Shown: positions 30,001 through 45,000 of the stretch, one piece after another
Layout: the number at the start of each line of letters is the position of its first letter
How positions within the stretch are numbered: position 1 is the stretch's first letter
Origin: Nitrospirales bacterium
GTDB lineage: Bacteria; Nitrospirota; Nitrospiria; Nitrospirales; UBA8639
Assembly (NCBI GenBank): GCA_963422365.1
Contig: OY729426.1
Span: 416,001-480,000, forward strand
Reading direction: 5' to 3'
DNA length: 64,000 bases
Made by a program: the position numbers

Positions 30001-33000
30001 TCTCATCACGCCCTCTTCCTGGCCGCATAAAGGCATGTCCCTGCCTCTTTACTTGGCGGCAGAAGGCGAGCAGGGGTGTTGCCGCTACAGGGAAAGGCCG
30101 CATGAGATACGGCTCTACAAATACAGAGAAACGACTGTAGCCGCGCGCGCCATGCTCTGAGGCAGAGCCTACCCCATACCCTGATACGGGGGACATGCAC
30201 TATGGCGACTTCCCATACGCTTGATGACGTGCTGCTGTTTCGGGAATGACGCAACCAAGAACATCGAAGGAAGAACGGAACCCTTAAACGGTATCGGTGG
30301 ACGATGGTTCTTCTTCCGTTCCAGAATAAGAAGAAGGACGAATCGAAGACAATTCGTTGGGATGGAGTAAGGTCAAACAGTCTTCGGCCACCGGATCTTT
30401 ATGAAACAACGCATAGATGGGGAACACCTGAGGAGACTCTTCGCCGTGCGCTGAGGGAAACAAGACCGGCACTTCAATCCATGGCATTAACGTTTGTAGG
30501 CTGGCGAGTCTCAGACGAACGGCCAGCAACATGTCCCGGACCCGGAGATCCCATTCATGTGAATCGAGATCCACGGATTTGGTGATGCTCCGATTCCATA
30601 ACGACTTGGTAATCCCCACGGCCACATTAAAACCGATGCGTTGGGCCTTTTTAGTCACATCCACAAGCAACCCGGCATCGATGGCGTCTTGGCGGGAAGT
30701 CACGTGGCGGGCTGGCATCCTGGACTCACCTATCTGCTCCGATAAGACCTCACGATTCACGGTCTCCGCAACCACCGTTTCGTGGGATTCCACTTCCCTT
30801 GATAAGTCTTGGCTGGCCTCGATTGTGTCACACGCATCCACCGCATACCCTCGGGCTGTCAGCATGCCGTCATACACGGCCCGAGCAGACTGCGACCACG
30901 AGGCATCGAAGGGTCGGCCCCGGTAGGCCGCCTCGGCAGCTTTTTTCTCATCATGGGTTAAGGGACGAGACGGATTCATACTAAAATTGATAAGGCTCAA
31001 CAGGAAACAAGTCAAGGGAGACGAAAATTTTTACTTGACAGAAACCATAACGATTTGTCAATGGCCGAGCGGAAGTTGGGAAACCGCAAGTGCATGCCCC
31101 CTTGTCGTTTGTTGAATGAGAGACGTGACACTCGCATCCATCACGTTGAGTAACGGCCCCGGGTACAACCCAACCCAAAACACAACCACCACCAAGGGAA
31201 TCAGGGTTGCGGTTTCTCGCCAGTTCAGATCGGAAAGCCGTGCGGCAACCGACGTTCGAGGTGGTCCCAATGCGACGCGCTGTAACATCCAGAGCATGTA
31301 CGAGGCAGCCAAGACAATGCCGACCAGGGCCAGCAGCACCTTCACGAAACTTTCGTAGGACGTGCCCACGAGCACCAAGAATTCACCGATAAAGTTACAC
31401 GTGCCTGGCAGGCCGAATGACGCCACCGAGAAGAGACAAAACAGCGCCACAAACCGAGGCATGGTTTTGTGAAGACCGCCATAATCATTAATGGACCGAC
31501 TGTGCGTGCGGTCGTACAATTGCCCGATGGCCAAAAACAAAGCGCCGGTGGTGACACCGTGATTGAACATCTGGAGAATCGCGCCCTGGATGCCCTGACT
31601 GTTGAAGACGAAAATGCCAAGGGTCACGAATCCCATATGGGAAATCGAAGAATACGCCACAAGCTTTTTGAGATCGGACTGCGCCAAGGCCATGTATCCG
31701 CCGTAAATAATGGCTGCGATGGACAACCATAAAATAAACGGGGCAAATTGTGCCGAAGCCTCAGGAAAGACGGGAAGACAAAATCGCAGAAATCCATACC
31801 CACCCATTTTCAACAACACGCCCGCGAGAATAACGCTTCCCGCAGTCGGTGCCTCTGAATGGGCAGCGGGGAGCCACGTATGGAAGGGCAACAGGGGCAT
31901 CTTAACAGCAAAGGCTAGAAAGAAGGCGAGGAAAATCCAAAACTGCGCTTCCGATGAATACGTTTGGCCGGTGAGGGTAAGAATGTCGAAGATGCGTCCA
32001 CCTTCCAAGTACAACCCCAAAATCCCCACCAACAACAACAAGCTTCCCGTCAGACTGTACAGCACAAATTTAATGCCGGCTGCTAGGCGTTGAGGTCCTC
32101 CCCATAAAATAATCATGAAATACATGGGAATCATGGTGATTTCCCACAACATAAAGAAGAGAAAAAGATCCAAGGCGGTAAAGACCACAATCATCGCCCC
32201 TTCCACCAACAGAATCAGCATCATGAATGCTCTGACTCTCGTCGTGATGGAATGCCAAGAGCAGAGGACACAGAGAGGACAGAGCAGCGTGGTCAGCAAG
32301 ACCAGTGGGATACTAATGCCATCCACGCCAACGGCATATTGAATATTGAAGGTGGGCATCCATTGCATGCGTTCCACGAACTGCATGCCTTGGTTTCCGA
32401 AATCAAAACTGGACCAGAGCATGAGGGACAGGCCAAAATTCAAGAGCGTCGACGCGAGGGCGGTTCGACGAATCCATTCACGATCCTGAACGAATGCCAG
32501 AACTGCAATCGCAAGAAACGGAACAGCTATCATCCAACTGAGAAGATGATCAGCAAAAATAAAACTCATGATACTTTCTTCAGGCAAGACCTCTTGGGGA
32601 GCTTCGTGGCATTCATGACACGAGCCAATAGAAAAGTCCTATGGCCACAACCAGCCAAAGCACCATGACCAAGACATGGTGTTGAAGGATTCGTGGTTCA
32701 ACTTTCTGCAACATATGACCTGTGGCATCAGCCTGATACCCCAATCGTTCGACAGGCTTCTCAGGCACACGGATATCAAAAACCTGCCACAGCCATCGGG
32801 CAAGGGCAACGGATCCTTCGGCAAGACTCATGATCACGCGATCAATTCCTCCAAGATCAATGGTTTTCCATAACCAGCCGGCTAATCGAAGCATAGGTTG
32901 AACCACATACACTTCATAGAGTTCGTCGACATACCACTTGTTGAGAAAAAGCACATACAGCGTTTTTCCCCACTCCGACTGTCCGAATGGGGACCGTCGA

Positions 33001-42000: not shown

Positions 42001-45000
42001 GTTACCGCATGGTTGGGAGAAAGTAACACCGGGCATAAGGCAGACCGTTCCTCGCTATCAAAGGCTTGATGACTGATAGGAATACCGAAAAACCCGGCGA
42101 ACCCAAGCGTTTCATACGGACCCTGCGCCTCGACGTGTCGACGGAACGATTCCGATCGGACATCAATGCAGCACACGAGTTGTGCGCGCGGGCGAGTGCC
42201 GAGTGGCGGCACCGTTCCGCGATGGGCCGAAAGTTTTTGGATGATCTCGCCTAGAAAGGCATCTTCATACGCTTCAAGCCACACCGGGCCGTGCCGATCC
42301 AGGGGAAAGACATCCAGCCATCCTAATACCATTCGCGCCTCAGCCACGGAAAGATCGGTCATCTCGAGAGGTGACAGCTCCAAAATTTGAGCAAGGTGAA
42401 ACAGCCGCCAGGCATCACGGCAGATCGCCTGTTCCGCGGCATCGACCGCATGCGTGCCTTCCCCCATTCGGTTCTTGTATTCATCCGGACGATCCTGCCA
42501 GTAGGCGATCAGCGCCGAAACGTTTCCGTCAATCCCCCATTCTCGCTGACAGGCCACATGCGTCAATTCGGATTCATAAAACACACGCACCGCCAGATAC
42601 TGAACGGCATCAACAGGGTGTTTTTGTTGCGCGTGATACGCGGGATTCGTCTCAAGCCAACGAACGTATCGCGTCCAACCCGGCAATTGGGATAACTGCC
42701 GTGAGAGGTAATCGCTCCAGAGCTCCTGTGGAATGCCCAGACGATGCAGACTCGACACAATCGCATCCTCAGGCTCAGGCGGAAGATTGTTGACTTTCTC
42801 CCGTAAATCTCGAATGCCCAAAAAGCGGCTGGACCGATCGCGTTGCGCAAGCTCTCGCCAAGCCGCATAGAATCCCCCGTGCCTGCAGGGCATTTCCCAT
42901 CCGGCTAATCCTTCATCGACAAACGCCGCAAACCATTTGATGAGTTGGTTATTGATCTGTTCGACCAAGTCCGTTCCAGCCAAGACATCCACCCAATCGC
43001 TGGTGGTTTGCTGAGACGGCAAGGCAATGTCGATGGAAGCGCGTGGCCCCTCTGACACGTTTAGGCTTGCATGCCCGGCGGCGTGGTCGCCGGACAGAGC
43101 ATCGGACAGCCCTAATGCCGACAATATGGCTTGCCACAGCTTCGCAAGATACGCCTCCTCGGGATGATCCCGACATTGCTCACACTCTCGGAGCATTCGC
43201 TCGATGATGCGTTGTCTGGATTCGTCTGAAAGGTCGTGGCGAAATCGTTTCGTGGCTCCATCACCGCCGAGTTCCCATTGCAGCAGGGCGGGCTCCAACG
43301 CCTCAAATCCAAACACCACATGCCCATGCCACACCTCATCGACCGTGATCCGACGACTCCCGACCGTAATCGCCTGTTGTGTGTCCTGTCGAGGGCCCAT
43401 TCGCGCTAAGGCCCGGTTGAGACTGTCGCGGGTGATGCGTCCCGCTCGATAAAACCGACGATACTCTTCATTAGGCAAGTACCCATTTCCACCAAGAAGC
43501 TGTTTGCCTTTTTGAACGGCCTGATCAAAGGGAAGATATTCGAATCCGTGCAAGGGATTTTGGGCAACCATGACTTGCATGGGCCAAAAGGGTGGAATCG
43601 GTTCGCTAGCCTGGGCAACCGTCTGGCGGAGCAGATCGCGTTCTTCTTGGGAAATCGCATGCATCGACGTGGTGCTCATAACATTGCTTGTGCCTTGCTA
43701 GGAAAAAACCAACCGTTTTCGTTCCATCCATCTCAGAAAAACACGGTTGGCTCGTCCTGTCACTGAACGCTTTGTCGGGAAGCCCAGCCACCACACAGCC
43801 TTCGTTCGTAGGTCAGACTCAATCCGGGACCACCTGCCTGCTTTCATGTGCATACCTGCCTCAGGGAAGCAGGGGGGGCTCTCCTTGACCTCTACAAAGT
43901 CATGGCTTATACCATTGTTATATCAGGGACTGCAGACGGGCTCAAGAGATTTCTGGTCAGCCAAAAGCTCTTCCAACCCTGTGACCCCCCCTATGAAAAA
44001 TGGATCGACCAAAGGCGAAGTTGAGACAGCCATCCGCAATGCCGTCATCAAATTCGAACAAGAATTTATGGGGCGCGGGCCGACCGAGGTCAAGGCGTTC
44101 ATCCTTCATGACATAGTCTTGGTACGGCTCAAGGGCGTCTTGACTCCAGCCGAGCGTCAACTCGCGAAAAATACTGAGGGGGTTGATATGGTCAAACGCA
44201 TGCGGCAGAACCTGATCTCACAAGGACGGGAAAGACTCTGTAGCCAAATTGCAGCCATTACCGGGACAGAAGTCACAGGCCTGTTCACCGATATCGAAAC
44301 GCACATCGGTGAGCGGATGATTGTCTTTACTCTTGAAAATGACCTCGACAATACCTCTCGCTAGCCCACCACAGTCTTCACAAACATTTCCACGTTCTAT
44401 TGGCAGAAAAATCCAAAAAGGACTTCTAGCCCTCGGATAGAGGATTGAGGAAAAATTTGGACATGGAACGATACGAAAAGGGTTACGAGAGAATGTTCCC
44501 GGCGGGAAAGGGCCTAAGGATGCCTTCGGCTTTCGGAGAAAAACGAATAGCTTAGAAAATCTTGGCTATCAACGCACGAAATGGGTTGACAGCCGCTTCA
44601 GATTTCGCACCACTCTTAGCTTGGGAAGAAGAAACATTTTTTTCGTCTTTCTTCGGTGCTTTTTGATCACAGTGAAGACTTCTGTACAAGATACGAAATT
44701 CACTCATGATATCCCCCCTCCAAAGGTTTGAACAAGAACTGTTTCTGGTATGAAGCAAAGGAGGTGCCAAGTTTCACAAAGGAACATCTTCAAATAAAAC
44801 TCTAAAAAAACAATTTGTTATGAATATAAAACGCTAGATCGTCCAACAATGATGAGGGAATAAGCAAAAACGCACATGCTCGGATGAGCGAAATCGCACC
44901 AAAATACTGGGAGCAACATGGCTATCATGGGCTATTAGGGCGATGGGTCTGGAAGGAAATGGGAGGAGAACGCACGCAATCCGTTACGTGCAGCTTGTCG

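Follow-up and report, generated by a model that had tools for sequence, protein, structure and literature searches.

The window analysed here is a stretch of 64,000 nucleotides between positions 416,001 and 480,000 of contig OY729426.1 (assembly GCA_963422365.1, Nitrospirales bacterium, UBA8639). It contained a dabA gene in two pieces on the minus strand, followed on the same strand by degP, mrpE-F-G-A'-B-C-D, a nuoL-like gene and a nuoM-like gene. The N-terminal piece of dabA (41613..43679; PF10070 positions 1-438) carried the Zn ligands C504 and D506, the lid motif and the membrane finger with Asp603, and the C-terminal piece (40654..41718; PF10070 positions 438-747) carried the His and the second Cys ligand together with the motifs NNPYFAALDCGACGG and DWANPRPEWGL. 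Behind them lay a degP/htrA protease gene (38929..40464), an insertion restricted to this genus among the loci examined, and the genes mrpE (38038..38493), mrpF (37760..38026), mrpG (37460..37759), A' (a separate gene for the MrpA C-terminal part, MbhD+MbhE / DUF4040; 36933..37481), mrpB (36487..36936), NuoK-like mrpC (36117..36515) and mrpD (34651..36120), a complete set of Mrp subunits B, C, D, E, F and G plus the MrpA C-terminal domain. The NuoL-like subunit (L; 32613..34622) passed TIGR01974 (478 vs 407.5) and the NuoM-like subunit (M; 31058..32587) passed TIGR01972 (619 vs 263.8). These genes and their order match the nine-gene Mrp-like operon that the genome-wide survey's note had described behind dabA.

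From mrpE to the nuoM-like gene, intergenic gaps ranged from -29 to +28 bp. As dabA and degP were separated by 189 bp, and degP and mrpE by 435 bp, a single transcript from dabA to the nuoM-like gene is only putative in this genome; a promoter/terminator scan stayed at chance level (8 vs 11.0; 26 vs 19.9). Divergent from dabA, on the plus strand, was the genome's sole copy of mpsC (PF10057/DUF2294; 43993..44364, its start set from 122-123-aa relatives). Genes for a SulP-family anion transporter (45026..46675), which immediately precedes dabA in the majority of non-nitrifier loci, and for a NhaD Na+/H+ antiporter (46936..48552) followed on the minus strand. At the other end, 42 bp after the nuoM-like gene, stood a DUF6573 gene (30284..31015, minus strand), which flanks the operon in Nitrospirales only.

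The earlier note had weighed an assembly indel against real decay for the frameshift in dabA. Short-read contigs of all three informative runs, from two studies, carried one extra base behind position 41688, although the assembly itself may derive from one of these runs; a fourth run contributed no reads. The assembly is in error here, with a one-base deletion at 41688..41689 that causes the frameshift, and the true gene is a single 1008-aa frame; real decay is ruled out by the extra base. The Cys, Asp, His and Cys ligands expected of the PF10070 subunit of DAB/DAC/MpsAB systems were all present, and C504, D506, H702 and C717, together with the finger residue D603, which aligns with the canonical Glu, were invariant in 41 of 41 sequences, in agreement with the claim that the Zn-site motifs are retained in relatives. 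The DabAs of these loci formed one clade (support 94), apart from canonical DabAs. A Foldseek search with the DabA model returned no match at E<=0.001, the best being CsoSCA (2FGY; 6e-3), and 9RD0 was absent among the matches listed. In the N. marina proteome, a 1006-aa 'hypothetical' protein encoded two gene ids upstream of mrpE was detected at 1-6 spectra (PMC8115632 supplement), and its size and place suggest that it is DabA.

The whole genome held one DabA locus. Its 10 PF00361 matches were all accounted for by the L/M/N subunits of canonical complex I, the L/M/M/N subunits of the 2M complex I and three genes of this operon, and hence there is no DabB in the genome. Those three genes lay 4.5-9.6 kb downstream of dabA in the same apparent operon, as in the DAB criterion of PMC13147460. 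Neither alpha- nor beta-class carbonic anhydrases were found in the genome, and no redox or quinone-binding subunits (NuoB/C/D/H/I) were matched in the operon here or in the other loci examined. L fell below the cut-offs of NF006029 and NF006373, which we take to be DabB-type models, and M and L score as NuoM and NuoL, as had been noted. The description of a DabA without DabB stands by family score only: changes resembling those of DabB are seen in L, which probably is the subunit that docks DabA.

L looks like a DabB substitute. Among 98 distinct L sequences, the TM12 Lys was found in none of the 96 scored and the TM6 Arg in none of the 94 scored, while the TM5 Glu was retained in 97 of 98. 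The subunit encoded here had lost the TM12 Lys/Asp, had a remodelled TM11-12 loop and kept the lateral TM5 Glu/TM7 Lys pair; the absence of the TM12 Lys/Asp with an acidic residue in the DabA finger instead is a DAB feature. The Lys408-type residue that marks the proton entry of MrpA in TM12 was thereby missing from the distal subunit. Ordinary NuoL among 150 profile matches retained the TM12 Lys, as did the third large subunit in all 13 DabA-less E-F-G-A'-B-C-D operons read, and the third large subunit of the DabA-linked operon in the same set lacked it. Judged from these alignments, the remodelling of L is specific, being seen only where dabA is present. L did not share the short lateral helix and replaced TM5 Glu of the DabB clade: its sequences formed one clade (SH-aLRT 97) apart from both DabB and NuoL, with a full lateral helix and a terminal TM16 that match or exceed those of canonical NuoL in length. 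Neither the His328/Arg331 helix of DabB nor the Glu704 of DabA that pairs with it (PMC13684180) was present here. The charged axis was retained in M (TM5 Glu, TM7/TM8 Lys, TM12 Glu) and in D (TM5 Glu, TM7 Lys, TM12 Lys).

Structural modelling was consistent with docking of DabA on L. The L monomer was weakly modelled in TM12-13 (mean pLDDT 66) and had NuoL/ND5 as best folds. A complex of DabA 450-1005 with L 105-546, taken from locus L012, scored 0.68 against 0.00 for the best of three controls, with contacts agreeing to at least 83% and a partner pLDDT of at least 74. Among solved pairs, 116 of 157 attained the mark used, against 2 of 215 among mismatched ones; the mark is rough here, where own alignments were used. 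The model covers the DabA-L pair only; its pass may reflect likeness to the solved DAB2, and close cousins can pass. In the predicted complex, the DabA finger is wedged against L TM11, placing Asp603 at the position of DAB2 Glu444.

Approached from DabA, the linkage was extensive, with 61 of 69 loci having mrpE no more than 10 kb downstream (directly in 49, behind degP in 8, behind an inserted canonical pair in 3 and behind 4 kb of other DNA in 1); the eight misses comprised four with degP only, one contig end and three distant DabAs of other types. From the side of L, a scan with an L-only DNA motif found dabA adjacent in 66 of 80 loci, 13 being too short and one without it; the genome of that lone L had a canonical DabA only and no MnhB. 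Five Nitrospira loci of the 80 consisted of dabA-L-M(-M) only, without Mrp small subunits, and MnhB was absent from the four such draft genomes searched, which indicates that some carriers can do without the Mrp part. The tie of DabA to the Mrp operon is therefore upheld by these counts, but not as an obligatory one. The dabA-L loci fell under seven phylum labels and, besides marine Nitrospirales and Nitrospinaceae, where the system appears widespread, carriers included Acidobacteriota, Pseudomonadota, Planctomycetota, Myxococcota and Methylomirabilota, with Pseudohaliea rubra DSM 19751 (locus L154) as a cultured representative. The whole operon was found in 25 of 31 non-nitrifier loci, the remaining six being too short. 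The idea of a DabA-Mrp pump thus gained support from sequence and modelling, while its restriction to marine nitrite oxidisers was lost. Arms have been swapped between lineages, DabA of locus L012 standing at 84% and its arm at 48-71% to this genome, a point against a single complex. Heterotroph-type lineages were among the hosts, and records were mostly marine.

That dabA is an orphan, is decaying or merely neighbours a standard group 3 Mrp carrying additional MrpA/D-like subunits is very improbable. The operon has indeed been published in such terms, as Mrp plus extra mrpA/D (PMC7784846) or as alternative nuoL/M (PMC8115632 supplement), three large subunits are usual for this gene order, partner-less DabA copies were reported in two Nitrospira (PMC13147460), and dabA here is apparently frameshifted. 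That frameshift is an artefact, however, and the invariant active-site residues, the linkage across seven phylum labels and an L remodelled only where dabA is present argue the other way.

Within the genus (n=37), 20 genomes had the full MnhB and the NuoL-like gene, and DabA of this length class was intact in 19 of them and split in one (G015); the other 17 all had the longer DabA, with remnants of this type in nine, which reproduces the counts of the genome-wide survey's note. Canonical DabA was present in 20 genomes, of which three (G020, G024 and G033) retained both systems. The proposal that gain of a canonical pair led to the dropping of both old parts consequently holds for 17 of the 20, and canonical DAB gain is not always followed by loss. 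The split rests on about five changes, at least four of them forced on the nuoLMN tree, and the system appears to be ancestral in its genus. The separation of the operon from dabA in one genome was also found, at a distance of 260 kb, in G013 of our numbering and not in G024 as named before; it weighs against a single complex.

Gain and loss also bear on whether one complex might serve pH/Na+ homeostasis, DabA making protons from CO2 for the antiporter (or consuming them from SulP-imported bicarbonate) with carbon supply as a side effect. Most non-nitrifier loci, and 31 of the 52 nitrifier loci with enough upstream DNA, have a sulP gene ahead of dabA, nhaD lies nearby, the hosts include heterotroph-type lineages with mostly marine records, and the operon is the genome's only Mrp. 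We nevertheless consider this improbable: the system was replaced by canonical DAB and not by another antiporter, the genomes that lost it live without any Mrp, and L, having lost the Lys at the MrpA periplasmic proton entry (PMC9568556), should be a poor antiporter.

Pairwise identities from 66 loci linked the DabA catalytic half most closely to L (rho 0.91, partial 0.82), with lower values for the six small subunits (0.64), D (0.67) and M (0.72). This tracking held in thinned sets of 39 and 22 loci, and L outranked the genes adjoining dabA; mirror-tree agreement can, however, stem from shared rates. D tracked M and the small subunits at rho 0.94, and M tracked D, not L. The partition could mean two units in one operon, a self-contained DAB of DabA, L and M (with M in the place of DabC) and a separate cation antiporter of MrpD and the small subunits that offsets the acid or Na+ load from carbon uptake. 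The 5 of 80 loci that have dabA-L-M(-M) but lack Mrp genes, the overlay of DabC on NuoM (PMC13684180) and the antiporter-BicA cooperation proposed for such a locus (PMC7784846) fit this arrangement, as does the tracking of DabA with L and of D with the small subunits. It is nonetheless unlikely, as M tracks D instead of L, L has the full lateral helix and TM16 missing from canonical DabB, the genome offers the E-D genes no further distal subunit of MrpA type, both complex I operons carrying their own L/M/N, and the Mrp genes vanish with this dabA in 17 genus genomes.

We favour, as probable, a single DabA-L-M-D-Mrp complex in which a vectorial carbonic anhydrase, seated at the tip of an Mrp-type arm, is driven by a gradient, similar to cyanobacterial NDH-1MS without redox input. 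L would form the outer end of the Mrp/complex-I-type arm and receive DabA on its cytoplasmic side, the probable subunit order being L-M-D-C-(A',B,G,F,E). The buried Zn site would hydrate CO2 in one direction only and release bicarbonate inside, the proton being handled through L, and downhill entry of H+ or Na+ through the Mrp part would drive the cycle. Since L keeps the TM5 Glu/TM7 Lys pair given up by DabB, its cycle may be wired sideways to M and D. The complex would supply cytoplasmic bicarbonate, a role in which canonical DAB could replace it. The dabA-L-M loci without MnhB, in which the Mrp part is not obligatory, the missing DabB-type His328/Arg331 helix and DabA Glu704, and degP with the 435-bp gap between dabA and mrpE here weigh against one complex, and the DAB1 paper disputes the finger's part in the proton path. 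Of 100 MrpF sequences, 92 had Asn, as here, at the Asp38 position and 4 had Ala; at the Glu687 position of MrpA stood Gly/Ala, with a Glu four residues earlier, while the Asp678, Asp771, Asp776 and Glu780 positions were retained. The canonical Na+ route would thus be weakened, although DabA-less relatives also lack Asp38, for which reason its loss was rejected as a DabA-specific mark. Three large subunits were likewise discarded as a novelty, being normal for this gene order in DabA-less operons.

The lateral helix of L measured 79-81, 107-109, 134-136, 159-164, 190-192 or 218 residues in 83 of 98 sequences, compared with 80 in canonical NuoL and 112 in the NuoL of the four-subunit 2M complex. 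The 27-residue step corresponded to a repeated W-x-x-V-D...I-D unit, one of which is added to the canonical length in this genome; in L074, no tandem repeat was found at the DNA level. Helix length does not equal the number of large-subunit genes, as lengths varied with D-L-M constant and stayed long in dabA-L-M loci. A sodium-driven CO2-concentrating machine of adjustable arm length, in which each step docks one more copy of the product of the single M gene, giving 3-8 antiporter-like subunits (most commonly five) and more ions per CO2 hydrated under the drive of the Mrp module, is a speculative and rather doubtful extension, and a 26-aa insertion without an extra subunit is also known (10.1101/2021.11.15.468770).

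The system shares with DAB2 (DabA2-DabB2 of H. neapolitanus, PDB 9RD0) and S. aureus MpsAB the PF10070 subunit with a Cys-Asp-His-Cys Zn site and acidic finger and a NuoL-derived partner without the TM12 Lys/Asp, but its partner is a full-length NuoL type from a separate clade that has retained the TM5 Glu, TM16 and a long lateral helix; M, D and the six Mrp small subunits are encoded in the operon alongside it, and the finger residue is Asp. DAB1 (DabA-DabB-DabC of T. albus and H. neapolitanus) likewise has a long-type DabA with the DW-x3-RPEWGL and NNPY-x3-LDCGACGG motifs and a NuoM-related beside a NuoL-related subunit; its DabC, however, is half a NuoM without proton residues, whereas M is complete with charged residues, and its Glu704-His328/Arg331 contact and flexible arm are absent here. 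With group 3 Mrp/MBH-type modules the operon has in common the mrpE-F-G-A'-B-C-D order, the split MrpA C-terminus, three large subunits and the D771/D776/E780-type motif, but dabA stands at its head, its distal large subunits are of NuoL and NuoM type, and the outermost of them is without the Lys of the proton entry. In cyanobacterial NDH-1MS (CupA on NdhF3, PDB 6TJV), too, the enzyme that hydrates CO2 sits on a distal homologue of NuoL which has been remodelled but retains the ion pair to its M-type neighbour (PMC6981117), yet CupA has a different fold and the complex is powered by ferredoxin:plastoquinone redox, while the operon here has no redox or quinone subunit. DAB-like chemistry in an NDH-1MS-like layout, with a cation module for the redox arm, is the best and a reasonably probable reading.

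An earlier account of the Mrp and nuoL/M part in Ca. N. alkalitolerans (PMC7784846) did not include DabA, and no description of a DabA-Mrp operon was found in the literature searched, subscription papers and bioRxiv supplements being beyond reach. If true, the grafting of DabA onto an Mrp arm would add a third means of powering the one-way hydration of CO2, besides redox-driven NDH-1MS and DAB on its own. It would also serve as a natural experiment on the coupling of the charged axis in complex-I-type arms to a distal chemical reaction, and on whether the length of the lateral helix sets the number of subunits. In this genome it is the sole recognisable CO2-uptake system, and its carriers include nitrite oxidisers of major importance in the ocean, about whose carbon supply little has been learned.

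On the minus strand the genes run nhaD, sulP, dabA, degP, mrpE-F-G-A'-B-C-D, L and M, where D, L and M denote the MrpD, NuoL-like and NuoM-like subunits and A' a separate gene for the MrpA C-terminus; mpsC is divergent, on the plus strand, between sulP and dabA. The genes from mrpE through M are closely packed, and degP stands between dabA and mrpE, 189 bp from the former and 435 bp from the latter. The host assembly (one contig, 98.6% complete) possesses one DabA locus, and its ten PF00361 matches all fall in D, L and M or in one of the two complex I operons, the canonical one and the 2M type of the window; the genome therefore has no dabB, in agreement with the genome-wide survey's note of a single, partnerless DabA. 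No second Mrp or SulP was found elsewhere in the genome, nor any match to the alpha- and beta-class carbonic anhydrase families (the gamma class lay outside this search). In the assembly dabA reads as two overlapping frames, and its real decay had been raised as a possible refutation. This was not borne out: short-read contigs from three runs of two studies, one run possibly being the assembly's own source and a fourth yielding no reads, were identical over 7 kb except for one extra base behind position 41688. The frameshift is an assembly artefact, and the corrected dabA has 1008 codons, as in the relative at locus L012.

Of the 52 nitrifier loci whose upstream DNA extends far enough, 26 have the mpsC gene (PF10057; here 43993-44364, plus strand) next to this dabA type, and the gene occurs twice around the operon of genome G268. 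Outside staphylococci it is not co-located with mpsAB, according to the available part of PMC6689103; a role in regulating DAB-type loci is possible. The stretch 48576-53187, which flanks nhaD, carries a Tll0287-like haem-domain gene and a CHASE3/PAS histidine kinase paired with a sigma-54 regulator, and similar two-component pairs adjoin dabA in the Nitrospira loci L135 and L140. Nine kilobases from the DabA operon lies the 2M-type complex I operon nuoB-C-D...G-I-J-L-M-M-N (7565-22075, minus strand). Its nuoG reads as two overlapping frames near 17150, probably through another assembly indel, the canonical nuoG copy being continuous; between nuoD and nuoG, a 347-aa ORF (18637-19680) gave neither a Pfam match nor a paralogue. 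The window also encodes a voltage-gated-type ion channel (PF00520; 834-1646, minus strand) and an AbiEii/OLD-like AAA ATPase with a small unknown gene (53729-55627, plus strand), a possible defence pair in a low-GC stretch.

A DabA-side search returned 69 loci, 66 of them in Nitrospirales or Nitrospinaceae, with mrpE within 10 kb downstream of dabA in 61. As selection on DabA was to be avoided, a second scan used a motif of L alone and matched at least 120 stretches, with flanks obtained for 80; the two sets share genomes, and kin are not independent. Among these 80 listed loci, 61 had dabA and Mrp genes, five dabA-L-M(-M) only, and 13 were too short; the remaining one lacked dabA, and in its genome the sole DabA is canonical and MnhB is missing. 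The order sulP-dabA-E-F-G-A'-B-C-D-L-M, or a contig-limited part of it, was present in 25 of the 31 non-nitrifier loci among the matches listed, labelled Acidobacteriota, Pseudomonadota, Planctomycetota, Myxococcota and Methylomirabilota, so the proposed restriction to marine nitrite oxidisers does not hold. The operon is real and conserved. Another multi-subunit arrangement, in which dabA is joined by one L-type gene and as many as three of the M type, occurs in Acidiferrobacterales and Polyangiaceae records (L078:99-9515; L079:7433-13811), in clades separate from the system described here.

Within the genus, the reported split of 20 Mrp-type and 17 canonical genomes was reproduced; it requires only five changes on the nuoLMN tree, whose deep branches carry the Mrp-type system. 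The accompanying claim that gain of the canonical pair meant loss of both DabA and Mrp stands as far as this split goes, but three genomes (G020, G024, G033) carry both systems. In both phyla, a canonical three-gene DAB (dabB, a 358-410-aa gene, dabA) is inserted directly beside the Mrp-linked dabA, either upstream or between dabA and mrpE (L022, L029, L030, L031, L037, L038, L063, L069, L071, L073). A divergent arm, 48-71% identical to that of this genome and with the canonical helix length of 79-81, occupies the same location in close relatives and a Nitrospina record (L011, L012, L060, L071, L062), which by sequence represents whole-arm swaps between lineages.

Several features point to L as the probable DabA partner. 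In DAB2, as described in the accessible part of 10.64898/2026.03.13.711513, DabB lacks NuoL Lys399/Asp400, the position being filled by Glu444 of the DabA membrane finger, and has Ile in place of Glu144. L reads F-S-G-P-Y-E against F-S-K-D-E in NuoL and lacks the loop that normally follows TM11. Among 98 distinct L proteins, the TM12 Lys was found in none of 96 scored and Arg175 in none of 94, while Glu144 is kept in 97; M and D retain their charged residues. The Lys is retained by the ordinary NuoL found within the top 150 profile hits and by the third large subunit of DabA-less operons of the same order (13 of 13 read, from 15 fetched regions); in G268, where a DabA-linked operon stands back to back with a DabA-less one, the third large subunit of the former lacks it. 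In quick trees, L and the DabAs of its loci each form a separate clade, and these DabAs keep the Zn ligands and the finger Asp. In pairwise divergence DabA tracks L at 0.91, against 0.64 for the adjacent small subunits, with D and M also below L, although L lies seven genes from dabA, between D and M.

A DabA-L complex model, for which, of L, M, D and plain NuoL, only L was run as partner, scored 0.68, while the highest-scoring control stayed at 0.00; contacts agreed to 83% or more, and the pLDDT of the partner was 74 or higher. The model thereby passed a cut-off that, in calibration, 116 of 157 solved pairs had cleared, along with 2 of 215 mismatched ones. It places DabA Asp603 against His344/Ala347/His348 of L TM11 and supports binding, though the pass may reflect mere likeness to DAB2. 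A simple copy of DAB is argued against because both sides of the canonical contact, given in the available part of PMC13684180 as the DabB His328/Arg331 helix and DabA Glu704, are missing here.

We favour, with reasonable though incomplete confidence, a carbon pump in which DabA docks on L at the tip of an Mrp-type arm. The lateral helix and TM16 of L would hold M and D together in an arm that terminates in the Mrp small subunits; ions moving down their gradient through the Mrp end would act on L by way of the Glu/Lys axis and make the hydration of CO2 unidirectional. A similar layout, powered by redox chemistry, is found in NDH-1MS (PMC6981117, in part). The accessible part of PMC9568556 lists the acidic residues of the Mrp sodium path; here four of these positions are kept, Glu687 is shifted and MrpF Asp38 is lost, the latter loss being common to DabA-less relatives. 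The length of the L helix follows steps of 27 residues in 83 of 98 proteins (seven deviate, eight were unscored). Gene counts do not change with this length, so either more than one copy of M is built in or the repeats serve no purpose; complex I with additional pumping subunits has a 26-residue insertion, which also occurs without them (10.1101/2021.11.15.468770, in part). Alternatively, DabA-L-M could be a self-contained DAB, with MrpD and the small subunits a separate antiporter. We regard this as rather unlikely, but it stays viable because a reduced form exists: five Nitrospira loci (L092, L117, L135, L140, L147) possess dabA-L-M without Mrp small subunits, L140 with two M genes. In these, L retains its TM5 Glu, and its lateral helix is long.

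As the survey had stated, DAB papers, so far as available, pair DabA solely with DabB or DabBC (10.1101/476713), and PMC13399641 and PMC6689103, in the parts available, mention just the two-gene pair. In Ca. N. alkalitolerans, an Mrp, nuoL/M-like and bicA locus is described as an antiporter, with DabA not named in the accessible parts of text and supplement (PMC7784846); the available part of PMC8115632 lists mrp and alternative nuoL/M genes, with an adjoining 1006-aa protein as hypothetical. 'Mrp' is absent from the main text, as available, of the DAC surveys PMC13147460 and PMC10880623, and no description of a joint DabA-Mrp operon was found in the literature searched, closed journals and bioRxiv supplements lying outside it. 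The operon stands outside the DabB and Mrp families as defined, and probably represents a large, hitherto undescribed DAB type, predicted to work in a DAB-like manner on an Mrp arm.
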